From contig JBBDRO010000026.1 in the NCBI GenBank assembly GCA_040905425.1, forward strand, positions 1-50,674: a stretch of 50,674 nt of DNA, written 5' to 3'. The notes under the pieces were generated by a model. That model did not search any database. It had not been told where the DNA came from and was given only the letters and a program-made list of their open reading frames with translations. This document shows positions 34,553 through 50,674 of the stretch, piece after piece. Position 1 is the first letter of the stretch; the number at the start of each line of letters is the position of its first letter. This stretch comes from Gemmatimonadota bacterium (GTDB lineage: Bacteria > Gemmatimonadota > Gemmatimonadetes > Longimicrobiales > RSA9). The translations under genes and the position numbers were made by a program.

Positions 34553-34618
34553 GCCAAGGGATCTCCAATGGTGGTACGTGCTCATCGAACCGCCCTACGA
34601 GGGAGCTCTACCACCAGT

Positions 34619-35662: not shown

Positions 35663-35743
35663 GCGCCCCGGGGCTGGGTGCGCCCTGGGCCCGGGAGCGC
35701 CCCGGGCCTGGGAGCGCCCCGGGGCTCGGGTGCGCCCCTGCCC
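35663..35743. repeat. About 17-bp tandem repeat (x4.5) filling the dapF/lptG convergent gap
   Basis: gcgccccggggctgggt / gcgccctgggcccggga / gcgccccgggcctggga / gcgccccggggctcgggt / gcgcccctgccc. Confidence 0.8.
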
Positions 35744-36810
35744 TAGGTGCGTACGCGGGTCATCAGCACCACGGCCGCCACCGCGAACAGCGCGTTCGGC
35801 CCCCAGGCCGCCAGATCGGGCGAGATGGTGCCGGTGTTTCCCAGGGCCTCGGTCACCTTGAAGAGCATCAGATAGACCACGGTCACGGCCAGCGAGATGC
35901 CGATCCCATAGGCGGGTCCGCCACGACTCGAGGTGGTGGCCATGGGCATCCCGAAGAGGATGATGATGAAGGTGGCCACGGGTATGGCCAGCTTCATGGC
36001 GCGCTCCACTTCCAGCTCGAGGGGTTCGGTGCCGGAACGCTTCAGCGATTCGATGAAGGCGCTCAGCTCGGCGTAGCGCATCTCGTCGGGCTCCTTGGGC
36101 GTGGCCAGGAACTCGTCGGGCGTGTAGGTGAGGTTCTCCGGCTGCACGGAATCGAACGGGATACTCTCCACGACGCCCTCGCCAACCCACTCGCGCTGGA
36201 AGCCGTCGTGGAGCGTCCAGCGGCTGCTCGCGCTGTCGTAGACGGCACGCCGGGCCACGAGATCCACGGTGGGCATGCTCGCCCCGTCCCCCTCCAGCTC
36301 CCCGTGGAAGAAGTAGATGGTGTCCCCGGTGATGCGGCGGCCACGATAGAACCAGTTGTCGGGGGCGCGGTAGTGGAAGTTGCTGCGCGACTGCACCTGC
36401 CCGGCGCGATCACCGCGCAGCTCGGCCGCCTGCGACTGCGTGACGGGCACCACCTCCGAGAGCCCCAGGCCGAGCGCAGTGGCCACAAGGCCCAACAGCG
36501 GCAGCGGCAGGAAGAGCCGCCAGAAGCTCACGCCCCCCGCCTTGGCGGCCGCGACCTCAGAGGTGCGCGTCATGTTGCTTACGGTGAACACCGTGGCAAT
36601 GAGCCCGGCCACCGGCAGCGACCAGAGCATGAAGAGCGGATAAGCGTAGAGGTAGCTCAGCGCCTGGTCCGCGAGGGGAATGCCGCGGTTCGAGTACGTA
36701 TCGATGCGGTCGGTCCAGTCCCCCAGGATGAAGAGGAAGGGCGCCGCCACCGTGAAGAGCACGAAGAGGCGGATGAACTCGCGGGCCACCAGGCGGTCGA
36801 GGCGGCGCAT
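35743..36810 (-). CDS. lptG: LPS export ABC transporter permease LptG (YjgP/YjgQ family)
   Basis: MRRLDRLVAREF, SEVAAAKAGGVS, periplasmic domain, KLAIPVA...WGPNALF. Confidence 0.88.
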   Translation of the reverse strand: MRRLDRLVAREFIRLFVLFTVAAPFLFILGDWTDRIDTYSNRGIPLADQALSYLYAYPLFMLWSLPVAGLIATVFTVSNMTRTSEVAAAKAGGVSFWRLFLPLPLLGLVATALGLGLSEVVPVTQSQAAELRGDRAGQVQSRSNFHYRAPDNWFYRGRRITGDTIYFFHGELEGDGASMPTVDLVARRAVYDSASSRWTLHDGFQREWVGEGVVESIPFDSVQPENLTYTPDEFLATPKEPDEMRYAELSAFIESLKRSGTEPLELEVERAMKLAIPVATFIIILFGMPMATTSSRGGPAYGIGISLAVTVVYLMLFKVTEALGNTGTISPDLAAWGPNALFAVAAVVLMTRVRT

Positions 36811-36956
36811 CAGCGTGCTCCCCGGCTCAGCGGCGTGGTTGTCCGGCGCATCAGCGTGCTCCCCGGCTCAGCGGCGTGGTTGTCCGGCGCATCAGTGTGC
36901 TCCCCGGCGCAGCGGCGTGGTTGCCCGGCGCATCAGCGTGCTCCCCTGCGCAGCGG
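36803..36956 (-). repeat. 41-bp tandem repeat (3 full copies + partial) of the lptF-stop/lptG-start junction, encoding three 13-aa mini-ORFs
   Basis: Unit cggcgcatcagcgtgctccccggctcagcggcgtggttgtc at 36803, 36844, 36885 and 36926 (partial); each carries GGGGAG plus TGATG on the minus strand. Confidence 0.95.
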
Positions 36957-38396
36957 TCGCAGGGGCCGCAACGCGGCGGCCTTGATGCTGGCCACCAGGT
37001 CATCCCAGCCGCCGCCGCGTGAGGTGGACGTCTCCCGCCCGATGCGCGCCAGCGCCAGGAGCGCGATCAGGAAGAAGATGAGGTTCGGGCCCCATGGCCC
37101 CCAGAAGGGCGCGATGACGCCGTCGTCACCGAGCGTCTCGCCGCCGATCAGCGACATGTAGTAGATCCCGAAGATGCCCAGCGAGATGGCGATCACCATG
37201 CCCACTCCCCCCCGGGGAAAGCGCACGGCCAGCGGTGCGCCGAGCAGGACGAAGACAATGCACGCGAAGGGGATTGCCCACTTCTTGTGGATCTCCACGC
37301 TGTTGCGATTGACTTCCCGCTGGGCGTGCTGCGCCTGGGCGTTCAGCACGTCCAGATCGAGCGCCACGCGGCGCACCAGGGCGTCCTCCTCACCGGCCGA
37401 ACGGCCGCGGGCCAGCGCGCGCGCCGCCCCGGGCACGTCCGCCAGGTTCACGCGCCCTGCCTGCGCGGCCGCGGGGATACCGCCACGGTAGGCGTCCGCC
37501 CCGGCCAGCACGTCGTCCAGCGCGGCGCGGGCCACTACGGCGGCGGAATCGCGGAACACGGCCAGCTCCTGGCGCGCCGTATCCACCTGGGCGCGCAGCA
37601 TGGCAATGGACATCTCGCGGTCGCCGCGGCTGCGCCCCTCCTGATTGCGGGTCAGCTCGTCGCCCACCCCTTCGAGCACCGTCTGCTGCCGGTCGAAGAA
37701 CACGCGGTCGTAGACGGTGAGGTCCGACTCGGCCACCTCCTGCACCCAGCCCTCATCGAGGGTGAGGAGCAGGTCGGTCTGGTCCTGGTTGAAGTCCATG
37801 CGGCCGCGCTCGGCGTAGATGGTCCGGGCGCGGGTGGACTCGCTCATGTCGTAGATGACCACGTCCTCGAGCACGTTCGTGCCCCGGTCGATCTGGGCGG
37901 CCTGGATGTAGTAGCGGCGCCCCGCCTGGCTGGTGGGGATCAGGTTGACCACCTGCTCCTTCAGCAGGAAGGTGGGGCTCTTCCGGTTGGCGTCGGCCAG
38001 CAGCAGGCTGAGCTCGTGGTTGGTCTCGGGCAGCACACGATCGTTGAACCAGACCATGAAGCCGGTCAGCATGCCGGCGGCCACGAGCAGGGGGATGAGC
38101 AGCGTGAGCAGGTTCGTACCGCTGGCCTTCAGGGCCGTGATCTCGTTGTCCGCGGCCAGCTGGCTGAAGCCGTAGAGCACCGCCACGAGTACGGCCATGG
38201 GCGTGGTGAGCGCCACGATGTGCGGGATGGAAAGCGCAAAGACCTCGAAGTAGATGCTGAGCGGCAGGCCCTTGCCGGCCAGCTCCTCGAAGCGGCGCGC
38301 CACGGTGTTGATGAACAGCAGTCCCGTGAGTGCCGTGAGGGCAAACACGAAGGGCGCCGCGTGTACGCGGAGAAGGTATCGCGTCAGAATGCGCAT
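36933..38396 (-). CDS. lptF: LPS export ABC transporter permease LptF (YjgP/YjgQ family)
   Basis: MRILTRYLLR, PMAVLVAVL...LAADNEITALKASG, VEIHKKWAIPFAC...WGPNLIF. Confidence 0.9.
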   Translation of the reverse strand: MRILTRYLLRVHAAPFVFALTALTGLLFINTVARRFEELAGKGLPLSIYFEVFALSIPHIVALTTPMAVLVAVLYGFSQLAADNEITALKASGTNLLTLLIPLLVAAGMLTGFMVWFNDRVLPETNHELSLLLADANRKSPTFLLKEQVVNLIPTSQAGRRYYIQAAQIDRGTNVLEDVVIYDMSESTRARTIYAERGRMDFNQDQTDLLLTLDEGWVQEVAESDLTVYDRVFFDRQQTVLEGVGDELTRNQEGRSRGDREMSIAMLRAQVDTARQELAVFRDSAAVVARAALDDVLAGADAYRGGIPAAAQAGRVNLADVPGAARALARGRSAGEEDALVRRVALDLDVLNAQAQHAQREVNRNSVEIHKKWAIPFACIVFVLLGAPLAVRFPRGGVGMVIAISLGIFGIYYMSLIGGETLGDDGVIAPFWGPWGPNLIFFLIALLALARIGRETSTSRGGGWDDLVASIKAAALRPLRPLRRGAR

Positions 38397-38414
38397 CGGT
38401 GCGGCGTTCGTCAG

Positions 38415-38463
38415 TTGAGAGGCGTGTAAGTCGTTAGTATATTTAGAACTTGCTGGCCCGCAA
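38415..38463. promoter_or_regulatory. Putative bidirectional sigma70 promoter for sprA (+) and lptFG (-)
   Basis: Plus strand TTGAGA(38415)-N17-TATATT(38438); minus strand TTGCGG(38463)-N16-TATACT(38441). The two -10 boxes overlap. Confidence 0.55.
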
Positions 38464-38518
38464 ACCGCACGCGGGACCTTACTCCGCACAACCCCGGCGC
38501 CCGGCGCCGTCCGCCCCT

Positions 38519-41500
38519 ATGAGTGCAGCACGCATCCGGACGCTTCCGCTGGCGTGGCGGCCCCCGGTCGCGGGGCCCGGCGCAGGCGTGCGGGCAACTG
38601 GCGGTGGCCGTGCAACGGGGCTGCGGGATCAGCCCGGCGGCGGTGGCCGTGCAACGGGGCTGCGGGCCCGGGCATTCGCCGGGCGGTCCGAGGCGTTGCT
38701 GCGTGCCCGCTTCCCAGGTGCCCTGCTGCAGGCGACGACGCTGGCCGCCGCCCTCGCCGCGCTGTCCTTCACGCCCGCGGCCGCGCAGGCGCCGCCCGTC
38801 CGTTTCCAGGCCCGTGCCATCCCGGACAGCGCCACTGCCGCCGCTGCCGTTGCCGTGCGGCCGGGCATCCGCGCAGACGCCTGGCGCGTTCGGGCCCTGG
38901 CAGGTACACCGGTGGCGCTCGGTCGTTTCCCTGGGAGCGCGGCGGAGCGCATGGAGCGGGTGTTCCTGCCGCTCAGCTTCCTGGGCTGGGTCGAGGCGCG
39001 GACGGGGCGGTTGGAGGAGATCCTGGAGCGCGAACGTCGGGCGCTCCGGGTCGCTTACATGAAGCCGGCGGGGGTGGCCGATAGCACGGTGGGACGGCAA
39101 TCGGGGGCGGGGGATCAGATCCTGGCGGAGGAGCTGGTGGCGGGGGATTCGCTGGCGGCGGGGGACTCGCTCGTGGCGGCGGGCCAGGCGGCGGCCGACA
39201 CGGTGCGGTGGCTGATCCTGCCGATGGACCGCGACTCGCTGCGGGCGGCGCGCGACTCGCTGCGCGTGGACCAGCCGGGCGTGGAGGTGACGGACGAGCT
39301 CCTGGGTGAGGCGCTCAGCCGCTATGCGGACCTGGGCATGGAGGTGACGGGGACGGGGGACTTCGGCGGCTCCTGGACGCGCTACAGCCCGTGCGACCCG
39401 ACCACGCCGTTCAACTGTGATCCGGGGCTCATTCCGCGCCTGCAGCCCACGGTGGACTTCTCGTTGCGCGTGGGCGGCACCGTCTCGGAGCGGATCCATC
39501 TGGACGTGGATTACAACCAGACGCGCCAGGACTTCGGCAGCCAGAACATCAACGTCTGGTACCAGGGCTTCGAGGACGAGGTGCTGCAGCGCGTGGAGGT
39601 GGGGGACGTGTCGCTGCGGCTGCCGGCCTCGCGCTTTATCGGGCAGGGCATCCCGGCGGGCAACTTCGGCTTCCGCGGCGCCGGGCGGCTGGGGCCCATG
39701 GACTTCCAGGCGGTGTGGGCGCAGCAGCGCGGGGACGTCACCACCCGCGAGTTCAAGCTGGGCGGCGCGGGGGCGCAGCAGTCGCTGGTGCAGCACGAGG
39801 AGCTGGAGCTGGATGACGCGGACTACGCGCGGGGGCAGTTCTTCTACCTGGCCCACCCGGATTCGCTCGGGCCGGCGCCGCACCTGGACCCGCTGCGCCT
39901 GGTGCCGGAGGACGCGCCGGCCACCGTGCGCCCCGATGCCGGGGGCACGCTGCAGGTGTTCGTGGACGAGCGCTACTCGGCGGGCAACGCCCAGGAGCAG
40001 GCGTCGCTGGGCTTCTTCCTGGCCGACGCGCTGCCGGCGGGCTCCACGAACCGCCACAGCGGGCTCTTCCGGCGCCTCACCCCGGGCGAGGACTACTACC
40101 TCCACTCCAGCGGTCTGTGGCTGGCGCTGCGGGCACCGCTCCGCCCGGACGAGGCGCTGGCGGTGGCCTACGTCACCGCGGCCGGGGACACGGTGGGCCA
40201 CCTGAACGCGGAGTCGGCGCCGGCGGGCACCACCCCGGAGCTGCGCCTGGTGCGCGGCGCGCAGGCGGTGCACCAGCCGGGGCAGCCCACCTGGCCCTTC
40301 GAGATGCATAGCGTCTACCGGGTGCGGGGCACCGAGGTGGACGTGGAGACGCTGGAGCTGGACATCTCGCTCGGCGGCCTCTCGGCGGGCCGGACCTTTA
40401 CCGAGGCCAACGGCCAGCAGACCTCCTTCATCCAGCTCTTCGGCCTGGACGAGCAGGCGCCGCTGGAGCGGCTGGACCGCTCGCTCATCTGGCAGCCGGG
40501 CGGCGCCGATCCGGTCTCCGCGAGCCGCGAGGGGATCAGCGGCACCTTCGTCTTCTTCCCCACGCTGGAGCCGTTCCGCGCGCCCCCACCCAGCCGCAAC
40601 CTGACGGCCGCCGAGGCCGCCGCAGCGCTGGGCAGCGACGGCAACGCGAAGATCTACACGGAGCCGGACCCCGTCACGCGCCAGGGCTCGGGCCGCTTCC
40701 GCCTGAACTTCCGCTTCCGCACCAACGTGGAGGGGCTGCGAGAGACCTTCTCGCTGGGCACCTTCGGCATGCGCGAGGGGAGCGAGCGGATCGTGCTGGG
40801 CAACCGGCCGCTCGTGCGGGACGTGGACTACGAGATCGACTACACCATCGGCATGGTGACGCTGCGCAACGCGGCGGCGCTGTTCGCGGCCAATCCGGAC
40901 GCGGAGCTGCGCGTCACCCTGGAGCAGCAGGCGCTCTTCGACCTGGCACCCACCAGCGTCTTCGGCATGAACGCCACCTACCAGGTGGGCCGGCGCGGCA
41001 CGGTGGACCTGGTGGGGCTCTACCAGAGCGAGAAGAACATCTTCGCGCGGCCGGAGCTGGGCACCGAGCCGGGCGCGGCGCTGGTGGCCGGGGTGAAGGC
41101 GGACCTGGACCTGGGAGGAGCGGGCCTGCACCGGCTGCTCTCGGCGCTGCCGGGGCTCCGGCTGGCCGGCGAATCCAGCGTGCGGCTCTCGGGTGAGGCG
41201 GCCCTCTCGGCGCCCGATCCGAACTCCCGCGGCGCCGCCTACCTGGACGATTTCGAGGGCACGGACGCCACCTGGCTGAGCGTGAACGCGCAGGACTGGA
41301 AGCTGGGCTCGGTGCCGGGCAGCCGGGACGGCTCCGAGGGCGTCCTGCCGCTCAGCATGGACGCCGCCAGCGCGGACAGCCTGGTCTGGCAGCACCTGGT
41401 GCAGCAGGGCGGCGGCACCGCCGGCGGCGAGCTGCCCGGCAACATCGACCGGGCCATCCAGGTGGCGGGCGCCGCGCAGCGCGAATCGGTGCTGTGGCTC

Positions 41501-44500
41501 ACCATGGGCGGCCGGGGCGCGCCGCCCGCGGGCCAGCGCTGGCGCTCCATGACCACCGTGCTGTCCAGCACGGGGCGGGACCTGTCGCGCGCCGAGTACC
41601 TGGAGCTGTACGTGAACTCGGCCCGCCCCATGGCGCTGGTCCTGGACCTGGGCAGCGTGAGCGAGGACGCCTTCTACCTGACCCCCGAGGGCGCCACGAA
41701 CGGCACCTACGAGGACGGCCGGCCCTGGGGACTGGGCGTGCTGGACGAGGAGGCCCGCCTGGCGGAGCGCGAGGTGTGGGGCACCACGGCCGATGCGCGC
41801 GGCCTCTGGGACCAGCCGTGCCAGGTGCGGCCGCTGGAGGCGCATCCGCTGGGCCACCCGGCGGCCAACTGCACCCGCGGCAACGGCGTGCCGGATACCG
41901 AAGACCTGGACGGCAACGGGGTGCTGGATGCCACGGACGGCGCCTACTTCCGCTACGTGGTGCAGCTCGGCCCCGGCTCCCCCTACCTGGCGCGGGACAC
42001 GGCGGAGACGGGCACGGCCTACCGCCTCTACCGCATCCCCCTGCGCTCCACCGGCACGCCCGTCAACGGTGCCTCGGACGCCACCTGGCGCTTCGTGAAG
42101 CATCTGCGCATGACCGTGGCGGGGGACCACCAGGGCGCCTCGAGCGGCTTCAACGCGGCCATTGCCCGGCCGCGCATCGTGGGCTCGCGCTGGGCCAAGC
42201 GGGACGTCACGGGCGTGCGCCGCGGCCTGCTGGACGACGAGGAGGGCCTGAGCGCCTCGACCGCGCGCGTGCAGGTGGGGCCGGCCGGCCGCCTGACCGA
42301 CGGCGGCGCCTACAGCTCGCCGCCCGGCGTCATCGACCAGCTGCAGGATCCCACGCAGGGCGTGGGCGCCGGCGGCGTGGAGTTCAATGAGAAGGGCCTG
42401 CGCCTGCGCTACGAGGAGCTGGGCGCCGACGAGCGGGCGGAGGTCTACTTCCGCTACCCGCAGACGCCGCGCAACTTCCTGGACTACCGCCAGCTCCGCC
42501 TGTGGGCGGTGGCGCGGGAGGGGGACTGGGGGCCGGAGGGCAGCGAGACGCTGCTGGTGAAGGTGGGCACGGACGCCCGCAACTTCTACCTGTACCGCGC
42601 GCCGCTCAATCCGGCCACCGGCGGCGCGGTGGTGCCCGGGGACTGGACGCCGGAGCTGGTCATCGAGTTCGCTCCCTGGCTGGAGCTCCGCCGCCAGGCC
42701 GAGGAGCGGCTGGTGGTGCGCGGGCCGCTGGCCACGCAGGACACCCTCTGGAACGAGGCCGGCACGCACGCGGTGGTGCTGGAGGAGCGCGGCCGGGCCC
42801 CCAACCTGGCCGCCGTGCGCGAGCTTTCCCTGGCCGTCCACAACGCGGCCGGCTTCCCGGCCACCGGTGAGGTGTGGCTGAATGACATCCGCCTGGATGC
42901 TCCCTACCGGGAGCCGGGCGGCGCGGGCCAGGTGGACTTCACGGTGCAGGGCGGGGACTTCATGGACGTCCGCCTCTCGCTGGACAACCGCGGCGCCCGC
43001 TTCCGGCAGCTGAACCAGGACGCTCGCTACGTCACCAACGGCAATCTGGCCTTCTCCAGCACCGCCAACCTGGGGCGCATGTTGCCGGCCGGCTGGGGAG
43101 TGGCGCTGCCCGTGAGCGTGCGCCACGCCCGCACGGCCGACGACCCCTACTTCCTGCAGGGCGGGGACGTGCTGGCCGGGGAGCTGGAGGGGCTGCGCGA
43201 GACGGGCAGCAGCAACACGGACGTGGTGGTGAATCTGCGCCGGGAGGCCCCCTTGGCCCATCCGCTGCTCTCCCTGCTGGTGGACGGCATGGCGCTCTCG
43301 CTGCGCTACAACACCGCCGAGAACAAGGGCCTCACGCAGCGCGCGGAGGCGCACGGCCTCACGGGCGGACTCAGCTACCGGCGCCAGCCCGCGGCGCGCA
43401 CGCTGGACCCGGTGCCCGCGCCCGTGGAGGGCGTGGTGCGGGCGCTGCTGCCCGGCTTCATCCAGGCCAGCAGCCTGTTCCAGCGCATTGCCGCCTCACC
43501 CTTCCGCTGGAGCCCCACGGACCTCTCCTTCGGCGGCTCCTACGAGGATCGCAACGCCCGCTCCTATCGCTTCAACCGGATCCTGACCACCGCGGAGGAC
43601 TCGCTGGTGAAGCCCACCGAGTCACCGCGCGTGGGTCTGAACACCGAGGTGGGCATTGGTTTCCGGCCCTTCAGTACGCTCAGCATGGGCGCCGATCTGC
43701 GTACCGCCCGGGATCTGCTCGACCCCGCCCGCGCGGCCACGGTGGCCAGCACGCGCGAGGCGCTGGCGCGGGCGCGCGGCGAGCTGGCCGGCATGGACGT
43801 GGGCTGGGAGGTGGACCGCAGCCTGGCCACGCGCTTCAGCTACGAGCCACGCATCTTTTCCTGGCTGGCCGCTAGCTACCGTTTCGATCACCGCTTCGGG
43901 CAGCGCCGTGACGCCGCCAACTTCCAGCAGGTGGTCGAGGGGGCGGATACGGTGGCCGAGCTCCAGCGCCGCTTCAACGGGGACCGTACCATCGACCGCC
44001 GGCTGGAGCTGAGCCCGGCCGCCGTGGCGGACGCCCTGCTGGGCGCGCCCGACAGCGCCGCGGGCGGCCCGGCCGCGCTGGCGCACCGCGCGCTCGGCGC
44101 CGTGCAGGACGTCCGCCTGCAGTGGCGTGACCGCCTGTCCTCCCGCTACGAGCAGGAAACCAACGCGCCGGACGCCATCTACCAGTTCGGCCTGGGCGGC
44201 CTGGACCACTTCCGTTTCCTGAACGGGGACACGGCCAGCTTGGCCACCGACGAGCGCCTCTTCGAGGTGCAGGGCGGCGTGAACCTGCCGGCCTCCCTGG
44301 CGCTCACGGTGCGCCGGAGCGAGGCCACGAGCCAGAGCCTGGACGTGCGCGGCGGCCTGCGCGAGCGCACCAGGGAGACGTGGCCTTCCCTCACGCTGAA
44401 CGCCGCCCAGCTCCCCGTGCCGGAGTGGCTGCGCGGCACGTTGCGCCAGGCCAGCGCCAGCATGGGCTACGAGGAAACGCTGGAATCCACGGTGCTCGGC

Positions 44501-45025
44501 CGGGTGGGCGACCCGCCGCGCACGGCCGAGTCCACGCGGCTCACGCCCACCCTGCGCCTCACCCTGGGGCAGGGCATCATCATGAGCTACCGCGGCAATC
44601 TGACCGACCGCACGGGCCGCGAGCCGACGGGCCGCACGGAACGCGCCCACGCGCAGCACAGCCTGGAGCTGCGGGGCACCCTCATGCCGCCCGAGGGCTG
44701 GCGGGAGCGGCTGCGCGGGTCGCTCAACCCCGGCCTCACGGTGGAGTGGCTGAGCACCGACGAGTGCCGCGTGCGGGCCGCCGCGGTGGACGCGGAGGCG
44801 TGCGTGCCCTATATCGATCTGAACACCCGGCGCATCAACTTCAATCTGGACACCAACCTATCGGACCTGATGGTGGGTGTGCGCCTGAGTCACAACGCCA
44901 ATCAGAACAACGTGGGCACCGCCACGGGGTCCAACCAGTTCTCCATCGGTTTCTTCGGGCAGTTCCGCCTCTCGGCCGGCCGCTTCCCCGAGACGCGCGC
45001 GCCCGGCCTGCCCGGCATCCGCTAG
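38519..45025 (+). CDS. sprA: SprA/Sov-like very large outer-membrane protein (T9SS translocon homologue)
   Basis: About 2,170 aa; signal peptide ending AAA|Q; SprA-like motifs VWYQGFEDEVLQRVEVGDVSL, LVRDVDYEIDYTIGMV, AYLDDFEG, LDLGSVSED, PDTEDLDGNGVLD and GEVWLNDIRL; amphipathic beta-strands in the C-terminal part. Start uncertain. Confidence 0.82.
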   Translation: MSAARIRTLPLAWRPPVAGPGAGVRATGGGRATGLRDQPGGGGRATGLRARAFAGRSEALLRARFPGALLQATTLAAALAALSFTPAAAQAPPVRFQARAIPDSATAAAAVAVRPGIRADAWRVRALAGTPVALGRFPGSAAERMERVFLPLSFLGWVEARTGRLEEILERERRALRVAYMKPAGVADSTVGRQSGAGDQILAEELVAGDSLAAGDSLVAAGQAAADTVRWLILPMDRDSLRAARDSLRVDQPGVEVTDELLGEALSRYADLGMEVTGTGDFGGSWTRYSPCDPTTPFNCDPGLIPRLQPTVDFSLRVGGTVSERIHLDVDYNQTRQDFGSQNINVWYQGFEDEVLQRVEVGDVSLRLPASRFIGQGIPAGNFGFRGAGRLGPMDFQAVWAQQRGDVTTREFKLGGAGAQQSLVQHEELELDDADYARGQFFYLAHPDSLGPAPHLDPLRLVPEDAPATVRPDAGGTLQVFVDERYSAGNAQEQASLGFFLADALPAGSTNRHSGLFRRLTPGEDYYLHSSGLWLALRAPLRPDEALAVAYVTAAGDTVGHLNAESAPAGTTPELRLVRGAQAVHQPGQPTWPFEMHSVYRVRGTEVDVETLELDISLGGLSAGRTFTEANGQQTSFIQLFGLDEQAPLERLDRSLIWQPGGADPVSASREGISGTFVFFPTLEPFRAPPPSRNLTAAEAAAALGSDGNAKIYTEPDPVTRQGSGRFRLNFRFRTNVEGLRETFSLGTFGMREGSERIVLGNRPLVRDVDYEIDYTIGMVTLRNAAALFAANPDAELRVTLEQQALFDLAPTSVFGMNATYQVGRRGTVDLVGLYQSEKNIFARPELGTEPGAALVAGVKADLDLGGAGLHRLLSALPGLRLAGESSVRLSGEAALSAPDPNSRGAAYLDDFEGTDATWLSVNAQDWKLGSVPGSRDGSEGVLPLSMDAASADSLVWQHLVQQGGGTAGGELPGNIDRAIQVAGAAQRESVLWLTMGGRGAPPAGQRWRSMTTVLSSTGRDLSRAEYLELYVNSARPMALVLDLGSVSEDAFYLTPEGATNGTYEDGRPWGLGVLDEEARLAEREVWGTTADARGLWDQPCQVRPLEAHPLGHPAANCTRGNGVPDTEDLDGNGVLDATDGAYFRYVVQLGPGSPYLARDTAETGTAYRLYRIPLRSTGTPVNGASDATWRFVKHLRMTVAGDHQGASSGFNAAIARPRIVGSRWAKRDVTGVRRGLLDDEEGLSASTARVQVGPAGRLTDGGAYSSPPGVIDQLQDPTQGVGAGGVEFNEKGLRLRYEELGADERAEVYFRYPQTPRNFLDYRQLRLWAVAREGDWGPEGSETLLVKVGTDARNFYLYRAPLNPATGGAVVPGDWTPELVIEFAPWLELRRQAEERLVVRGPLATQDTLWNEAGTHAVVLEERGRAPNLAAVRELSLAVHNAAGFPATGEVWLNDIRLDAPYREPGGAGQVDFTVQGGDFMDVRLSLDNRGARFRQLNQDARYVTNGNLAFSSTANLGRMLPAGWGVALPVSVRHARTADDPYFLQGGDVLAGELEGLRETGSSNTDVVVNLRREAPLAHPLLSLLVDGMALSLRYNTAENKGLTQRAEAHGLTGGLSYRRQPAARTLDPVPAPVEGVVRALLPGFIQASSLFQRIAASPFRWSPTDLSFGGSYEDRNARSYRFNRILTTAEDSLVKPTESPRVGLNTEVGIGFRPFSTLSMGADLRTARDLLDPARAATVASTREALARARGELAGMDVGWEVDRSLATRFSYEPRIFSWLAASYRFDHRFGQRRDAANFQQVVEGADTVAELQRRFNGDRTIDRRLELSPAAVADALLGAPDSAAGGPAALAHRALGAVQDVRLQWRDRLSSRYEQETNAPDAIYQFGLGGLDHFRFLNGDTASLATDERLFEVQGGVNLPASLALTVRRSEATSQSLDVRGGLRERTRETWPSLTLNAAQLPVPEWLRGTLRQASASMGYEETLESTVLGRVGDPPRTAESTRLTPTLRLTLGQGIIMSYRGNLTDRTGREPTGRTERAHAQHSLELRGTLMPPEGWRERLRGSLNPGLTVEWLSTDECRVRAAAVDAEACVPYIDLNTRRINFNLDTNLSDLMVGVRLSHNANQNNVGTATGSNQFSIGFFGQFRLSAGRFPETRAPGLPGIR
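38600..38666 (+). repeat. 28-bp direct repeat with 39-bp period in the 5' end of sprA
   Basis: ggcggtggccgtgcaacggggctgcggg at 38600-38627 and 38639-38666. Confidence 0.85.
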
Positions 45026-45036
45026 GAGAGGGTCAC

Positions 45037-45972
45037 ATGAGACATTTCGCGCTCACCGTGCTGCTGCTGGCCGCCTGCCAGAACGGCGGCGCCGGCCAGA
45101 TGGGCGGCACCGCCGCGCTGGTGGACGCCCCCGAGTTCCCGGCGGACAGCGCCTTCGCACTGCTCCGCCACCAGGTGGCCTTCGGGCCGCGGGCGCCCGG
45201 CACCGAGGGGCACCGCGCCCAGCTGGCCTGGATGGAGGAATTCCTGCAAGCGCGGGCGGACACGGTGGTGGTGCAGCGCTTCGAGCACACGCCGAACGCC
45301 GGCGGTGCGCCCATCTCCATGGCCAACGTCTTCGCGCGCTTTGCGCCCGAGAACCCCACGCGCATCCTGCTGGCGGCCCACTGGGACACGCGTCCCACGG
45401 CGGACAACGAGGGCCGGCGGGAGGACCGCGAGCGGCCCATCCCGGGCGCCAACGACGGCGCCAGCGGCGTGGCCGTGCTGCTGGCGCTGGCGCAGGTGCT
45501 GGCGGCCCATGCGCCGCCCATCGGGGTGGACCTGCTGCTCACGGACGGGGAGGACTTCGGCCCGGGTGAGATGTACCTGGGCGCCGAGCACTTCGCGGCC
45601 GACCCGGTGCCCGGCGCCGGCTACCGGCCGCTCTACGGCGTGCTGGTGGACATGGTGGGGGACCGGGAGCCGCGCTTTCCGCAGGAGGACTACTCGCGCG
45701 AGCGCGCCCCCGAGGTGGTGGACCGCATCTGGCGGCTGGCGCACGACATGGGGCTGGGCGGCTACTTCCCCATGCGCAACCAGGGCGCCATCTCGGACGA
45801 TCACCTGGCGCTCAACGACGCGGGCATCCGCACGGCCAACATCATCGACTTCGACTACGGCCCGGGCAACCGCTTCTGGCACACCCAGGAGGATAACCTG
45901 GAGAACGTGGGCCCCGAGGGGCTGGAGGTGGTCGGGCGCGTGTTGCTGCAACTGATCTACCGGGGCGGCTGA
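45037..45972 (+). CDS. M28-family lipoprotein, glutaminyl cyclase-like
   Basis: Lipobox LLLAA|C; QVAFGPRAPGT, LLAAHWDTRP, GANDGASGV, TDGEDFG, DMVGD, DDH and FWHTQED. Confidence 0.85.
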   Translation: MRHFALTVLLLAACQNGGAGQMGGTAALVDAPEFPADSAFALLRHQVAFGPRAPGTEGHRAQLAWMEEFLQARADTVVVQRFEHTPNAGGAPISMANVFARFAPENPTRILLAAHWDTRPTADNEGRREDRERPIPGANDGASGVAVLLALAQVLAAHAPPIGVDLLLTDGEDFGPGEMYLGAEHFAADPVPGAGYRPLYGVLVDMVGDREPRFPQEDYSRERAPEVVDRIWRLAHDMGLGGYFPMRNQGAISDDHLALNDAGIRTANIIDFDYGPGNRFWHTQEDNLENVGPEGLEVVGRVLLQLIYRGG

Positions 45973-46032
45973 GGGCGGCGGTGTGGCCCACCCGCCCATG
46001 GCCGTGCCCGCCCCGCGCGCGCACCGTGAGGC

Positions 46033-46425
46033 ATGCTCCGCCTCTCCCGCGACGAGACCCGCGCCCTCACGCTGGTGGTGGCGCTGCTGCTGGCCAGCGG
46101 CGGCGTGCGCTACGCACGCCGGCCGGCCCCGCTCGAGCTCACCGCCCCGGAGCTGGACGTGCCCGCGCTGGCGGATTCCAGCCGCGCGGCCATGGTGCGC
46201 GCCGAGCGGGCCGGCACGCCGCTCGGCGAAGGGGAGAGGCTGGACCCCAACACCGCGGGGGTGACGGAGCTGCAGCGCCTGCCCGGCATCGGGCCGGCGC
46301 TGGCGGCGCGCATCGTCGCTTACAGAGACAGTGCCGGCCCTTTCCGTACGCCGGAGGAGCTCCTCCGGGTGCCCGGCATCGGCGCCACCACGTTGGAGCG
46401 GCTGCGACCCCATCTGGGCCGCTGA
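46033..46425 (+). CDS. comEA: ComEA-family helix-hairpin-helix DNA-binding protein
   Basis: N-terminal TM helix; LDPNTA...LQRLPGIGPALAARIVAYR...GPFRTPEELLRVPGIG. Confidence 0.9.
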   Translation: MLRLSRDETRALTLVVALLLASGGVRYARRPAPLELTAPELDVPALADSSRAAMVRAERAGTPLGEGERLDPNTAGVTELQRLPGIGPALAARIVAYRDSAGPFRTPEELLRVPGIGATTLERLRPHLGR

Positions 46426-46437
46426 GGCATCCAATCC

Positions 46438-46467
46438 TTGACCGCGTAACCTGCTTCGCGGTAACTT
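46438..46467 (+). promoter_or_regulatory. Putative sigma70 promoter of pilB-pilT-pilC
   Basis: TTGACC-N18-TAACTT. Confidence 0.55.
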
Positions 46468-46518
46468 TTTGCTTCCTCTCGAACTCAATTCCCCCACGCG
46501 AGGTCGCGTAGTACAGGA

Positions 46519-48243
46519 ATGGCAACGACCGCCGCAGCCACACCCGATAGGATCGGAGACCTCCTCGTCCGGGAAGGCCTCATCACGCAGGAGCAGCTGA
46601 CGGCTGCTCTGGCGGATGCCAAGGAGAACCGGACGCGGATCGGCTACAGCCTCATCAAGATCGGGGCGATCGCCGAGACGGAGCTCACCCGCGCGCTGGC
46701 CAAGCAGTATCGTGTGCCCGCCGTGGACCTGGAGCGCGTGACGGTCGACCAGAAGATCCTGAAGCTGATCCCCGCCGACGTGGCGCTCAAGCACGTGGTG
46801 CTGCCGCTACGGCGCGTGGGGCGCATGCTCACGGTGGCCATGGCCAATCCCACGGACGCCAACGCCATCGAGAACCTGCGCTTCATCACCCGGCACGACA
46901 TCGAGCCGGTGATCGTGGGGGAGTACACCCTCAAGAAGCACCTCGAGAACTACTACCAGGTGGACGATGATGACCACCTGGCCCAGCTCATGGAGGCCAT
47001 CGAGGGGGCCGATGATGACGTGGAGCTGGTGGAGGAGGAGGACGAGGACGTCTCCGTGGCCGCGCTCACGGCGCAGGTGGATGACGCCCCCGTGGTCAAG
47101 CTCATCAACGGGCTGCTCACCGACGCGGTGACGCGCGGCGTCTCCGACATCCACATCGAGCCGTTCGAGAAGGAGATCCGGGTGCGCTACCGGATCGACG
47201 GCGCGCTCATGGAGATCATGAAGCCGCCCATGCGCATGAAGGCGGCCATCACCTCCCGCATCAAGATCCTGGCGCAGCTCAACATTGCCGAGCGCCGGGT
47301 GCCGCAGGACGGCCGCATCAAGCTGAAGATGAAGACCAAGGTGGTGGACTTCCGCGTGTCCACGCTGCCGGTGATCTTCGGCGAGAAGATCGTGATGCGT
47401 ATCCTGGACGCCGGCAACCTGACGCTGGACCTGGAGAAGTTCGGCTTCGAGCCCAACGCCGAGCGCGTCTTCATGGACGCCATCATGAACCCCTACGGCA
47501 TGGTGCTGGTCACCGGCCCCACGGGTTCGGGTAAGACCACCACGCTGTACTCGGCCCTCTCCAAGATCAACACGGAAGACGTCAACATCATGACGGCCGA
47601 GGATCCCGTGGAGTACAACCAGTACGGGATCAACCAGGTGCTGGTCAGGAACGAGATCGGCATGACGTTCGCGGCGGCGCTGAAGGCCTTCCTGCGCCAG
47701 GATCCGAACATCATCATGGTGGGTGAGATCCGTGACATCGAGACGGGCGGCATTGCCATCAAGGCCGCCCTCACGGGCCACCTGGTGCTCTCCACGCTGC
47801 ACACCAATGACGCGCCGAGCACCATCACGCGTATGATCGACATGGGCCTGGAGCCCTTCAACGTGGCCGCGGCGCTGAACTGCATCACCGCGCAGCGGCT
47901 GCTGCGCCGCATCTGCAAGGATTGCAAGGAGCCCACCACCTACCCGCCGGAGTATTTCAAGGCCGGCCGCATCAAGGGTGAGGACGCCAAGGCGCAGTAC
48001 TACAAGGGCAAGGGCTGTGACAAGTGCGGCGGGAGCGGCTACAAGGGCCGCGCCGGCCTCTACGAGGTCATGGGCATGACGGCCGACCTGCGCCGCCTCA
48101 TCATGCACGGCGCCGGCACGGACGAACTGCAGGCGCAGGCACTCAAGGACGGCATGATTACACTCCGCATGGACGGCATGATCAAGGCCAAGGCAGGGGT
48201 TACCACACTGGAAGAAGTCATCAAGGAGACCGCCGCACAATGA
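46519..48243 (+). CDS. pilB: Type IV pilus assembly ATPase with N-terminal MshEN-like domain
   Basis: RIGDLLVREGLI...RIGYSLIKIGAI (MshEN-like); SDIHIEP, ERRVPQDGRI, GPTGSGKTTT, LRQDPNIIMVGEIRD and CKDC...CDKC zinc motif. Confidence 0.96.
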   Translation: MATTAAATPDRIGDLLVREGLITQEQLTAALADAKENRTRIGYSLIKIGAIAETELTRALAKQYRVPAVDLERVTVDQKILKLIPADVALKHVVLPLRRVGRMLTVAMANPTDANAIENLRFITRHDIEPVIVGEYTLKKHLENYYQVDDDDHLAQLMEAIEGADDDVELVEEEDEDVSVAALTAQVDDAPVVKLINGLLTDAVTRGVSDIHIEPFEKEIRVRYRIDGALMEIMKPPMRMKAAITSRIKILAQLNIAERRVPQDGRIKLKMKTKVVDFRVSTLPVIFGEKIVMRILDAGNLTLDLEKFGFEPNAERVFMDAIMNPYGMVLVTGPTGSGKTTTLYSALSKINTEDVNIMTAEDPVEYNQYGINQVLVRNEIGMTFAAALKAFLRQDPNIIMVGEIRDIETGGIAIKAALTGHLVLSTLHTNDAPSTITRMIDMGLEPFNVAAALNCITAQRLLRRICKDCKEPTTYPPEYFKAGRIKGEDAKAQYYKGKGCDKCGGSGYKGRAGLYEVMGMTADLRRLIMHGAGTDELQAQALKDGMITLRMDGMIKAKAGVTTLEEVIKETAAQ

Positions 48244-49370
48244 GTTCCGCAGGAACCGCCATGCCGGGCCAGGCCCCGCAGGCCAGCGCCGTGAATCTGC
48301 GCGCGCTACTCGACGAAATGGTCAAGCGGGGTGCGTCCGACCTGCACATCACCGCAGGCGAGCGCCCCATGTTCCGCATCGATGGGGAGATCACGCGCTC
48401 CTCCATCGAGGTGGAGCTGGACCCCAAGCAGACGCTGGCTATTGCCTACAGCATCCTCACCGAGGCGCAGAAGAAGCGCTTCGAGGTGGAGGATGAGTTG
48501 GACTTCAGCTTCGGCATCCAGAACCTCAGCCGCTTCCGTGGCAACGTCTTCAAGCAGCGCGGCTGCGTGTCCATGGTGGTGCGGCAGATCCCCTTCAAGA
48601 TCCTGACCTTCGAGGAGCTCAAGCTGCCCGCCATCACGGCCAAGATGGCCGAGCGGCCGCGCGGCCTGGTGCTGGTCACCGGCCCCACGGGCTCGGGCAA
48701 GAGCACCACGCTGGCCGCCATGCTGGACAAGATCAACAAGGAACTCAAGGGGCACATCCTCACCGTGGAGGACCCCATCGAGTTCGTGCACAAGCACCAG
48801 AACTGCATCGTGAATCAGCGCGAGGTGGGCGCGGACACGAACAGCTTCAAGGACGCCCTCAAGTACGCACTCCGGCAGGACCCGGACGTGGTGCTGATCG
48901 GTGAGATGCGTGACCAGGAGACCATTGCCGCGGGGCTGACCATTGCGGAAACGGGCCACCTGGCGTTCGCCACGCTGCACACCAACTCGTGCGCGGAGAC
49001 CATCAACCGCATCATCGACGTCTTCCCCAGCACGCAGCAGAGCCAGGTGCGCGCGCAGCTCTCCTTCGTGCTGGAGGGCGTGATCACGCAGACGCTGCTG
49101 CCGCGCGCCAAGGGCAGCGGCCGTGTGGCCGCCTGCGAGATCATGGTGTGCACGCCGGCCATCCGCGCCTGCATCCGGGATGACAAGATCCACCAGATCT
49201 ACTCCATCATGCAGGCCGGTAAGAAGTACGGCATGCAGACCATGAATGACGCGCTCTACCAGCTCTACGTGCAGAGTGAGATCACGCTCGAGGACGCCCT
49301 GGCGTCCAGCCACGACCCGAACGAGCTGCTCCGCATGGCGGGCGAGCCCATTCCGGGCCAGGAGAAGTAA
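48240..49370 (+). CDS. pilT: Type IV pilus retraction ATPase
   Basis: GASDLHI, GPTGSGKSTT, EDPIEF, NQREVG, LRQDPDVVLIGEMRD, AIRACIRD (AIRNLIRE variant) and GMQTM. Confidence 0.96.
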   Translation: MSSAGTAMPGQAPQASAVNLRALLDEMVKRGASDLHITAGERPMFRIDGEITRSSIEVELDPKQTLAIAYSILTEAQKKRFEVEDELDFSFGIQNLSRFRGNVFKQRGCVSMVVRQIPFKILTFEELKLPAITAKMAERPRGLVLVTGPTGSGKSTTLAAMLDKINKELKGHILTVEDPIEFVHKHQNCIVNQREVGADTNSFKDALKYALRQDPDVVLIGEMRDQETIAAGLTIAETGHLAFATLHTNSCAETINRIIDVFPSTQQSQVRAQLSFVLEGVITQTLLPRAKGSGRVAACEIMVCTPAIRACIRDDKIHQIYSIMQAGKKYGMQTMNDALYQLYVQSEITLEDALASSHDPNELLRMAGEPIPGQEK

Positions 49371-49469
49371 CCGGGCCGCACGGCACGGGCCCGTACCACT
49401 GCAAGGCAGTAAGCGACGAGGCGGCGCCGGCTCCCGCGCGCCTCAACCCACAACGCGCGGTAGGACCCG

Positions 49470-50672
49470 ATGGCCACTTTTGTCTACACGGCACGCACAC
49501 CGTCCGGTGACGTCCAGGCCGGTGAGGGCTCGTTCAAGGACCGTGACGAGCTCATGGCCCACCTGCGCAAGCAGAAGTGGATCCCGGTCAAGATCGAGGA
49601 GAAGAAGAGCGCCTTCGCCGGGCTGGGCGGCGGCAGCATCGGCACGCGTGACATCGTCATCTTCACGCGCCAGTTCGCCACCATGATCAACTCCGGGCTG
49701 CCGCTGGTGCAGAGCCTGGACATCCTGGCCCGGCAGTCGGAGAGCAAGGCGCTGCGCAAGGTCATCGAGGGCGTGCTCTACTCCGTGGAGAGCGGCCAGA
49801 CGCTGGCCGACGCCATGCGCGATCACCCCAAGACCTTCACCGACCTGTACGTGAACATGGTGGCCGCCGGTGAGGCCGGTGGTATCCTGGACACCATCCT
49901 GCTCCGCCTGGCCACCTTCCTGGAGAAGGCCGACGCCCTGAAGCGCAAGATCAAGGGCGCCATGATCTACCCGGGCGTCATCCTGTCGGTGGCCATCGGC
50001 GCCGTGGCCGTGCTGCTCATCTTCGTGATCCCCACCTTCCAGGTCATGTTCGAGCAGGCGGGCGTCCCCCTCCCGCTGCCCACGCAGATCGTCATCAACA
50101 TGTCGGCGTTCCTGCAGAGCAATCTGTTCTACATGATTGCCATCATCATTGCCGTCAGCTTCGCGGTCCGGCAGTACTACAAGACGTCCAACGGCCAGCT
50201 GGTGCTGGACCGCCTGCTGCTGAACATGCCCATCCTGGGCAACGTGCAGCGCAAGGCCGCCATCGCCCGCTTCACCCGCACGCTGGGCACCCTGGTAGCC
50301 TCCGGCGTATCCATCCTGGACGGCCTGGAGATCACCGCCCGCACCGCAGGCAACCGCGTGCTGCACGACGCCATCATGGAGTCAAGAGCCAGCATCGCCG
50401 GCGGTGAGACCATCAGCGAGCCCCTCAAAGCCTCCGGCGTCTTCCCGCCTATGGTCACCAGCATGATCAACGTGGGTGAGCAGACCGGCGGCCTGGACGA
50501 GATGCTCTCCAAGATCGCCGACTTCTACGACGAAGAAGTCGACGCCGCCGTGGAGGCCATGCTGGCCGCCATGGAGCCGCTGATGATCGTGTTCCTGGGC
50601 ACGGTGGTGGGCGGCATGATCGTGGCGATGTATCTGCCGATCTTCGATATGATCGGGGCTGTGGGGGGGTAG
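49470..50672 (+). CDS. pilC: Type IV pilus platform protein (GspF family)
   Basis: FTRQFATMINSGLPL, AAGEAGGILD, KIKGAMIYP, VGEQTGGLDEML and EPLMIV...AMYLPIF. Confidence 0.95.
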   Translation: MATFVYTARTPSGDVQAGEGSFKDRDELMAHLRKQKWIPVKIEEKKSAFAGLGGGSIGTRDIVIFTRQFATMINSGLPLVQSLDILARQSESKALRKVIEGVLYSVESGQTLADAMRDHPKTFTDLYVNMVAAGEAGGILDTILLRLATFLEKADALKRKIKGAMIYPGVILSVAIGAVAVLLIFVIPTFQVMFEQAGVPLPLPTQIVINMSAFLQSNLFYMIAIIIAVSFAVRQYYKTSNGQLVLDRLLLNMPILGNVQRKAAIARFTRTLGTLVASGVSILDGLEITARTAGNRVLHDAIMESRASIAGGETISEPLKASGVFPPMVTSMINVGEQTGGLDEMLSKIADFYDEEVDAAVEAMLAAMEPLMIVFLGTVVGGMIVAMYLPIFDMIGAVGG

Positions 50673-50674
50673 GG

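Follow-up and report, generated by a model that had tools for sequence, protein, structure and literature searches.

The window analysed here is the whole of a 50,674-base contig (C26; GenBank JBBDRO010000026.1, 65–77% G+C) from the 4.12-Mb draft genome of a Gemmatimonadota bacterium (assembly GCA_040905425.1, designated G000; 115 contigs, 96.7% complete). It carries a block of envelope genes in the order lptG-lptF <> sprA-QC-comEA-pilB-pilT-pilC, in which lptG-lptF is divergent from the remainder and QC stands for glutaminyl cyclase. Our main subject is sprA, which encodes a relative of SprA/Sov, the outer membrane translocon in type IX secretion systems (T9SS). The gene (38519..45025, + strand) ends in a TAG stop at 45025, and 11 nt further on the ATG at 45037 opens a gene for a 311-residue lipoprotein of the M28 fold (45037..45972, +), followed after 60 nt by comEA (46033..46425, +) and after another 93 nt by pilB. 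Judged by the gene gaps only, sprA, QC and comEA may be co-transcribed. An initial annotation of this stretch, made from the letters alone, had described the same arrangement, with an M28 lipoprotein 11 nt after a giant SprA-like gene, then comEA, with lptFG divergent and pilB-pilT-pilC following, and all of these genes lie where it placed them.

The SprA-like protein that it had reported at position 38519 is recognised by two curated models: NCBIfam TIGR04189 (T9SS outer membrane translocon Sov/SprA, an equivalog model) reaches 454.7 bits, its cut-off being 200, and matches in four stretches (model positions 136–258, 372–790, 897–951 and 1078–1525), and Pfam SprA_N (PF14349) scores 32.6 bits against a cut-off of 27. 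sprA is a single locus in this genome. In a sequence search of the PDB the protein aligned with the solved SprA of Flavobacterium johnsoniae (6h3i_A, E 1.1e-25). Its C-terminal 620 residues lie outside the coverage of TIGR04189, and the fold test was directed at the C-terminal half only: the last 1060 residues, aligned with those of 47 relatives (48 sequences in all), were modelled with AlphaFold2. The resulting model (pLDDT 86.7, pTM 0.67) consists of long beta-strands throughout, and its four best Foldseek matches in the PDB are all SprA chains (8gl8_A, 8gl6_A, 6h3i_A and 6h3j_A; E 2.4e-29 to 7.1e-23), aligned over 1123–1168 columns with query-normalised TM scores of 0.44–0.47 and approximately 12% identity, while the fifth match follows at E 9.2e-7. 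By sequence and by predicted fold, then, the gene is a true SprA homologue, and the comparison with Flavobacterium SprA that the initial annotation had proposed, by profile and by structure prediction, came out in favour of both homology and fold.

Relatives of the protein in the databases are labelled Longimicrobiales or Gemmatimonadetes/Gemmatimonadota, and the closest named relative is a metagenome-assembled genome of an uncultured Gemmatimonadaceae bacterium (66% identity for the M28 protein). Several of the SprA relatives are already named 'cell surface protein SprA' at NCBI, and relatives of the cyclase are named 'glutaminyl-peptide cyclotransferase' at JGI ('M28 family peptidase' at NCBI), so that the earlier description of this system as undescribed was too strong. 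A literature search, which did not extend to subscription journals, found no paper describing a T9SS, SprA or glutaminyl cyclase in Gemmatimonadota. The phylum sits in the Fibrobacteres–Chlorobi–Bacteroidetes (FCB) group in the NCBI taxonomy, and the T9SS has been described in reviews, in general terms, as a trait of the FCB superphylum (PMC11205867).

The open reading frame (ORF) containing sprA spans 38450–45025 (+) and would yield 2191 residues from its first TTG, 2168 from the ATG at 38519 or 2109 from a TTG at 38696. The last of these appears more likely than ATG 38519 to be the true start. Translation from TTG 38696 opens with a predicted Sec signal peptide (38696..38785, +; read by eye from the translation) of classical form, ending in PAAA and followed by Gln, which would be the first mature residue; ATG 38519 would place about 60 extra residues in front of it. 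Relatives cover just 0.87–0.89 of the 2168-residue query in tblastn searches, indicating that part of that protein, most likely the N-terminus, is not conserved. The interval 38519–38695 is probably a 5' leader and not protein. If translated, it would encode Gly/Arg/Ala-rich repeats (GGRATG-like). Upstream of the gene lies a promoter-like box, TTGAGA-17-TATATT (38415..38443, +), a match to the sigma-70-like consensus only and the sole such site between 38000 and 50674; the pattern TTGAGN-17-TATATT recurs in 5 of 11 intergenic regions drawn from the window and ten close relatives.

The order of the block is conserved across the phylum. We examined 40 sprA-centred loci from 11 families, picked from SprA matches blind to their neighbours; some of the misses reflect contig ends. 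Divergent lptF/G lies upstream of sprA in 38 of the 40, and downstream are comEA in 37, pilB/T in 33, pilC in 30 and, within 1.5 kb, the cyclase gene in 22. The neighbourhood conservation that the initial annotation had wished to see examined is therefore present, and its modules are separable. Among 14 cyclase-centred loci from the family of this genome, sprA adjoins the cyclase gene in 12, lies 3.8 kb away in one (G014) and is missing from another (G008). The G014 locus (L055) contains approximately 3.8 kb of extra DNA between the two genes. In G008 (locus L054) and in family f3 (loci L064–L067, in genomes G030, G026, G022 and G028) the cyclase gene adjoins divergent lptF and is followed by comEA-pilBTC, sprA being gone. 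Family f2 shows the reverse arrangement, sprA being followed directly by comEA-pilT-pilC, with the cyclase encoded elsewhere (G019, G025) or replaced by a type I enzyme, and family f10 has sprA and comEA without pilBTC. The stretch would therefore be the central part of an ancestral block of envelope genes, handed down across the whole of Gemmatimonadota, from which modules have been lost or moved independently.

Within the window, as initially reported, there is no PorK, PorL, PorM, PorN or PorV, none being found among ten proteins searched with Pfam and NCBIfam or among the 17 other larger ORFs, which were searched with Pfam only and are housekeeping genes belonging to no type IX family. Elsewhere in the genome the picture is mixed, in that carrier-type barrels and tailed proteins are present, while PorKLMN were not found in searches that lacked a positive control. 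The best barrel, on contig C111, scores 145.2 bits as a protein and 141.7 in a genome scan on the PorV/PorQ-family model NF033709 (cut-off 90), and aligns with F. johnsoniae PorV (6h3i_F, E 2.1e-8); weaker paralogues of the same family were found in the genome scan on contigs C73 (79.5 bits), C16 (55.3) and C7 (29.6), and the barrels also score on the PorQ model. Directly upstream of the C111 barrel is a gene for a 1196-residue protein with a type IX-like C-terminal tail, the sole match in the genome to TIGR04183 (Por_Secre_tail; 22.4 bits when scored alone and 23.1 with neighbours, cut-off 23), which also aligns with the PorZ model, in the tail of the latter. Beyond this, searches of Pfam and of PDB sequences gave nothing to explain the protein, and the protein atlas returned uncharacterised clusters only. 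A profile built from the C111 tail detected two further tails, on contigs C105 and C16, both borne by S8 subtilases confirmed by Pfam and both unrecognised as tails by NCBIfam and Pfam. Immediately after the C16 subtilase gene comes a PorV/PorQ-type gene (64.1 bits); at C105 the ORF behind the subtilase gene does not resemble PorV. The genome thus holds three candidate cargo proteins, and for two of them the next gene downstream encodes a carrier barrel of their own. The C111 pair and sprA lie on different contigs.

The pairing recurs in relatives. Of 20 loci picked by a PorV_fam match, with a 110-residue cut taken from the upstream gene, 18 have an upstream gene whose product closes with a homologue of the C111 tail (tblastn E 8e-13 to 6e-42); at one of the two exceptions the 110-residue cut ran into a stop codon, and the other gave no match. 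All 20 aligned PorV-type proteins have an Ala-Gln pair where the signal peptide ends. The C111 region itself (locus L038, C111:42342–53160) is operon-like, with genes for a TonB-dependent-receptor-like protein carrying CarboxypepD_reg, the 1196-residue tailed protein, the PorV/PorQ barrel, a GWxTD protein and a 425-residue ORF without a family match; a protein with TPR and GWxTD is encoded on the opposite strand. A literature search for 'GWxTD' returned no paper.

SprA and the carrier barrels come and go together across the phylum. Among 121 evenly sampled genomes, which with one exception are 90% complete or more and no more than 5% contaminated, 97 gave SprA and 101 gave PorV_fam (E <= 1e-10): both were found in 95, SprA only in two (G102, G136), PorV only in six (G029, G051, G074, G084, G086, G103) and neither in 18, the SprA status of four of the last group (G123, G128, G129, G132) being deduced from the tally and the sample list. 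Eight further genomes are concordant, three with both (G004, G005, G009) and five with neither (G008, G024, G026, G028, G030), bringing the totals for 129 genomes to 98, two, six and 23, respectively. The tallies include genomes flagged as unpublished (G020 and G083, and in the order-level cyclase survey described below also G015, G016 and G018). The tail profile had matches in three of four SprA-positive genomes and in none of six SprA-negative ones, and in the sprA-less genomes represented by loci L054 and L064–L067 neither SprA, PorV_fam nor the tail profile had a match anywhere in the genome. The losses are spread over several families, including, with G008, the family of the present genome. 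In a FastTree phylogeny of SprA C-terminal halves families f1, f2, f4, f5, f10 and f12 are each monophyletic (SH-like supports 0.52 to 1.0), and this grouping by family fits vertical descent.

Two features of carrier gene content and position were noted in the same survey. Genomes of family f10 (G032, G035, G038, G041, G044, G047, G050, G052 and G054) have 10 to 16 PorV/PorQ-family matches each, compared with 1 to 5 per genome in most other families, which suggests a much larger repertoire of carriers and cargo in this class. Sixteen family f4 genomes have their best PorV-type gene 12–18 kb from sprA on the same contig, on the lptFG side in both of the genomes for which orientation was worked out (G071 and G055).

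The joint loss of SprA, barrels and tail bears on the possibility that SprA has been co-opted for some other outer membrane task, such as lipopolysaccharide (LPS) or envelope biogenesis or uptake, with the tailed proteins reaching the surface by another route. Such a role would suit the divergent LPS export permease genes found next to sprA in nearly all of the loci examined, in the window lptG-like (35743..36810, −; Pfam LptF_LptG 213.1 bits, TIGR04408 151.2 bits, under the equivalog cut-off of 240) and lptF-like (36933..38489, −; LptF_LptG 273.2 bits, TIGR04407 177.7 bits, under its cut-off of 230). It would also suit the position of the best carrier gene in an operon-like run headed by a TonB-dependent-receptor-like gene, and the fact that no energy chain was found. 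However, lptFG is kept in genomes without sprA, and LPS export therefore needs no SprA; moreover the predicted fold matches that of the translocon over more than 1100 aligned columns, and SprA disappears in company with PorV-type barrels and tails. We consider this reading improbable.

The remaining components of a canonical T9SS were sought by profile. Models for GldL, GldM, GldM_1st and GldN had no match above cut-off in this genome. Among the 121 phylum genomes GldM and GldN were found in none, and GldL in none above cut-off, with three marginal matches at E ~5e-4 to 8e-4. In a set of five genomes there was no match to GldM_1st or to PorP/SprF (TIGR03519), nor any to GldK above its cut-off of 350, generic FGE-sulfatase-type matches of at most 91 bits being all that appeared; the neighbours of two such weak matches in the present genome are unrelated genes, with nothing gldLMN-like among them. 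The sortase model PorU (NF033707) matched in the tail region only and never above 21.3 bits, with the cut-off at 420. These searches for GldK/L/M/N, PorU and PorP had no positive control, as a T9SS is missing from all 14 control genomes. With PorL/M, PorK/N, PorU and PorP/SprF not found, the pore would be either self-sufficient or driven by an unrecognised energiser.

The main rival to this interpretation is that the genome encodes an ordinary T9SS, whose PorL/M, PorK/N and attachment complex are either too diverged for TIGRFAM and Pfam models trained on Bacteroidota or simply unassembled. The uncontrolled motor searches leave room for it, as does the large divergence of the parts that were found, SprA being aligned in only four stretches and the carriers falling under the PorV equivalog cut-off. 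In addition, the available text of PMC12635249 treats the GldLM/PorLM energy chain as necessary to eject the carrier–substrate complex from SprA. Against this, the same pipeline found SprA and PorV_fam in approximately 80% of the very genomes, many of them 98–100% complete and some in a single contig, in which GldM, GldN and above-cut-off GldL went unmatched, and no gldLMN-like genes stand beside the FGE-sulfatase-type matches. We regard a canonical system with a divergent motor as unlikely, though as the strongest of the alternatives. Of the three outcomes that the initial annotation had named as fatal to its proposal, then, two did not occur, since SprA homology and fold were recovered and the neighbourhood is conserved, while searches without a positive control did not find a canonical T9SS in the rest of the genome, which would have been the third.

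The lipoprotein encoded immediately downstream of sprA matches Pfam Peptidase_M28 at 112.6 bits and has a lipobox-like N-terminus. Its best matches of known structure are bacterial glutamine cyclotransferases (6qro_A, E 2.4e-57; 6qql_A, 5.8e-50; 7cje_A, 6.9e-50), with human QC at ~1e-10 and the aminopeptidases YwaD and 2ek8 at 1e-7 to 1e-6; some of the top PDB matches bear the older deposit name 'leucine aminopeptidase'. In the alignment with 6qro, among candidate metal-binding and catalytic positions, the D of a G-A-x-D-G stretch, an E-D pair and a D-D-H stretch are identical. Judged by these matches, the lipoprotein is a type II glutaminyl cyclase.

A corresponding enrichment of Gln behind predicted signal-peptidase sites, the Q-rule, was measured in this genome using GC3-based gene calls and a home-made heuristic filter (charge plus hydrophobic core) rather than a trained predictor. 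The motif [AGS]Q occurs within 18 residues after the core in 199 of 392 secreted-like N-termini (51%), compared to an expectation from random interior windows of 47.5 +/- 6.3 (maximum 61 in 200 resamplings); for AxAQ the count is 81, where 2.2 would be expected, and Gln is the most enriched residue after AxA (9.3-fold). Both the cyclase and the Q-rule of the initial annotation are thus real. The accessible portion of an earlier study treats the Q-rule as specific to Bacteroidetes and describes a continuum across the rest of the FCB group; that portion does not mention Gemmatimonadetes, and argues against a mechanistic link between the Q-rule and the T9SS (PMC5837995).

The functional link between SprA and pyroglutamate capping that had been proposed for this locus is not supported by comparison among relatives. 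The cyclase stays where sprA, barrels and tail have been lost (G008 and family f3), and sprA stays without an adjoining cyclase in family f2. A strong match to the M28 cyclase (E <= 1e-58) is present in 26 of 31 genomes of the order. In family f2 none was found in G021, G027 or G029 and a weak M28 match only in G023, and in each of these four genomes (loci L179–L181) there is a beta-propeller cyclase of type I (PF05096, E 1e-82 to 1e-93); none was found in G000. Loss of the Q-rule might have been expected where the M28 enzyme is missing, but G021 and G027 keep it. In 400-kb samples the motif was counted in 14 of 28 N-termini in G021 and 12 of 22 in G027, both of which have the type I enzyme only, and in 9 of 14 in G019, a genome with the type II enzyme, with interior windows at ~10%. 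The type I cyclase explains the Q-rule in G021 and G027. Since the cyclase is kept when sprA is lost and is replaced elsewhere by the type I enzyme, its link to SprA is positional and not a dependency, and the exchange of type II for type I with a persisting Q-rule makes pyroglutamate capping look like a general envelope trait. We propose that the type II cyclase would cyclise the N-terminal Gln of most signal-peptidase-I substrates, SprA and the carrier barrels included, as a general envelope function that is not specific to SprA.

Beyond the cyclase gene, comEA encodes a putative membrane-anchored helix-hairpin-helix DNA-binding protein (HHH_3 79.5 bits; TIGR00426 61 bits against a cut-off of 53.1) whose translation shows an N-terminal hydrophobic segment, and is followed by pilB, the type IVa pilus assembly ATPase (46519..48243, +; TIGR02538 732.5 bits, cut-off 675.65), pilT, the retraction ATPase (48294..49370, +, with the start estimated in an ORF open from 48024; TIGR01420 498.6 bits, cut-off 319.1, matching from ORF residue 92), and pilC, the platform protein (49470..50672, +). 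The last was assigned to its family by Pfam T2SSF (227.4 bits in two repeats), its scores on PilC equivalog models being under their cut-offs (NF052606 493.6 bits, cut-off 700). Between comEA and pilB lies a weak hairpin with a T-run (46441..46470, +), a possible terminator with a 6-bp G+C-rich stem and a 10-nt loop, in a 55-nt segment that folds at −11.4 kcal/mol (z = −2.15); a terminator scan of 38000–50674 called none on the + strand, this hairpin included, and an Rfam search of the same interval returned no match.

Given the constancy with which comEA and pilB/T follow sprA, and the short gaps of 11, 60 and 93 nt, it could be supposed that sprA, the cyclase gene, comEA and pilBTC form one machine in which SprA serves as the outer membrane conduit for DNA uptake or pilus-linked export; a functional link to the pilus or DNA uptake had been raised by the initial annotation as a speculation. 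We consider this highly improbable. The comEA-pilBTC module stays where sprA has been lost, in G008 and family f3, and family f10 has sprA and comEA in the reverse situation, without pilBTC; two secretin genes are present elsewhere in this genome; SprA tracks PorV-type barrels and tailed cargo instead; and the weak hairpin and T-run part comEA from pilB. The proposed link to the pilus or to DNA uptake is not supported, and comEA with pilBTC would constitute an ordinary DNA-uptake and type IV pilus module whose secretin genes lie elsewhere.

We therefore think it probable that the locus combines three things: a reduced export system, in which SprA and its carriers handle a few tailed proteins and no motor, ring or sortase of the canonical kind can be recognised; a glutaminyl cyclase of general function; and an ordinary ComEA/type IV pilus module. 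The exported set would be very small, comprising the two S8 subtilases and the 1196-residue protein, which SprA would handle together with carriers of the PorV/PorQ type. In its pairing of cargo with a dedicated carrier the system would be closer to PorZ–PorQ, or to type B cargo, than to type A secretion in bulk. We infer export activity, cargo–carrier pairing and a true absence of the motor. The narrower proposition, that this is a stripped-down and possibly ancestral form of type IX secretion, consisting of SprA and dedicated carriers without PorLM, PorKN or PorU and either unpowered or served by another energiser, for which a TonB-type one is a candidate, has in our estimation about an even chance of being correct. 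Of the corresponding suggestion in the initial annotation, a minimal or ancestral T9SS-like export system in a non-Bacteroidota lineage, the parts that stand are a true SprA and the failure to find a canonical T9SS, and the part that is not supported is the functional link to the cyclase.

Several observations weigh against the preferred reading of a reduced SprA-plus-carrier system. The motor, ring and sortase searches were uncontrolled, as described above, and a very divergent motor may have been missed, although the pipeline did recover SprA and PorV_fam in phylum genomes; the genome is, moreover, a draft. Only one carrier exceeds the PorV/PorQ family cut-off and none the PorV equivalog cut-off, the C111 barrel itself scoring 63.8 bits on NF033710 against 250, and the tails barely reach, or fall under, the curated Por_Secre_tail model. 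Eight of the 129 genomes are discordant for SprA and PorV_fam, and G004 has both but no match to the tail profile. The genomes surveyed are related, so that their counts are non-independent trials and the independence of the co-occurrence is overstated. The Q-rule rests on a heuristic signal-peptide filter. Finally, the evidence assembled here comprises family membership, predicted fold, gene order, co-occurrence and the Q-rule.

Compared with the well-studied systems, the translocon belongs to the same family as SprA of F. johnsoniae (6H3I, 6H3J, 8GL6, 8GL8) and Sov of Porphyromonas gingivalis, is predicted to share their giant barrel fold over the modelled 1060 residues and, like them, occurs with PorV-type barrels and with proteins bearing C-terminal tails. 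It differs in that GldK/L/M/N, PorU and PorP/SprF were not found here or in the sampled phylum, in searches without a positive control, in having three candidate cargo proteins only, and in its conserved context of lptFG, cyclase, comEA and pilBTC genes. A model of dedicated carriers is described in the available text of PMC12635249 for PorZ–PorQ and PorU–PorV of P. gingivalis, and for type B substrates with carriers of the PorP/SprF family. The arrangement of a candidate cargo gene followed by its own barrel gene, seen at C111 and C16 and at nearly all of the relatives' loci, is similar to this; unlike type B, the carriers here are of the PorV/PorQ family rather than PorP/SprF, and no sortase was found. 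The cyclase resembles type II enzymes of Bacteroidota (6QRO, 6QQL, 7CJE; PG2157 of P. gingivalis) in its M28 fold and lipoprotein N-terminus, with matches at 1e-50 to 1e-57, and Gln is likewise strongly enriched after predicted signal-peptidase sites. Unlike those enzymes it is found in a Gemmatimonadota host, its gene lies 11 nt after sprA, and some relatives have type I (PF05096) instead. ComEA and PilB-PilT-PilC give standard family matches to a ComEA plus type IVa pilus module with secretin genes elsewhere, and differ from an ordinary one only in their conserved position right after sprA and the cyclase gene.

Two other regions of the window may be mentioned. Three genes upstream of sprA, 31799–34585 (−) encodes a large envelope-type protein of 928 residues in which DUF5916 (241 bits) and a CBM9-like domain were recognised, and which turns up again close to the block in some loci of family f2 (L073, L075). 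At 24745–30206 (+) there are two adjoining genes, each starting with a homocysteine S-methyltransferase domain, of which one encodes a full B12-dependent MetH-like protein and in the other this domain is fused to an MTHFR domain.

The analysis yields the table of co-loss for SprA, PorV and tail, the complementarity of type I and type II cyclases with a persisting Q-rule, and the fold test of the SprA C-terminal half. The work brings Gemmatimonadota within the range of the 'Bacteroidetes Q-rule' and its cyclase, with a swap between type II and type I enzymes inside one order, and the persistence of the Q-rule through this swap speaks for pyroglutamate capping as a trait of the envelope in general that does not belong to type IX secretion. 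The phylum keeps and loses SprA, PorV-type carriers and tailed cargo together, and motor and ring went untraced in 121 genomes. If the stripped-down form of type IX secretion is real, the energy chain held essential in Bacteroidota would be a later addition, and the minimal needs of SprA would be testable in cultured Gemmatimonas; members of the sister family with single-contig genomes make such bench tests realistic. If a controlled search upholds the absence of motor and ring, Gemmatimonadota would offer a natural minimal system in which to study both the requirements of SprA and the origin of type IX secretion.

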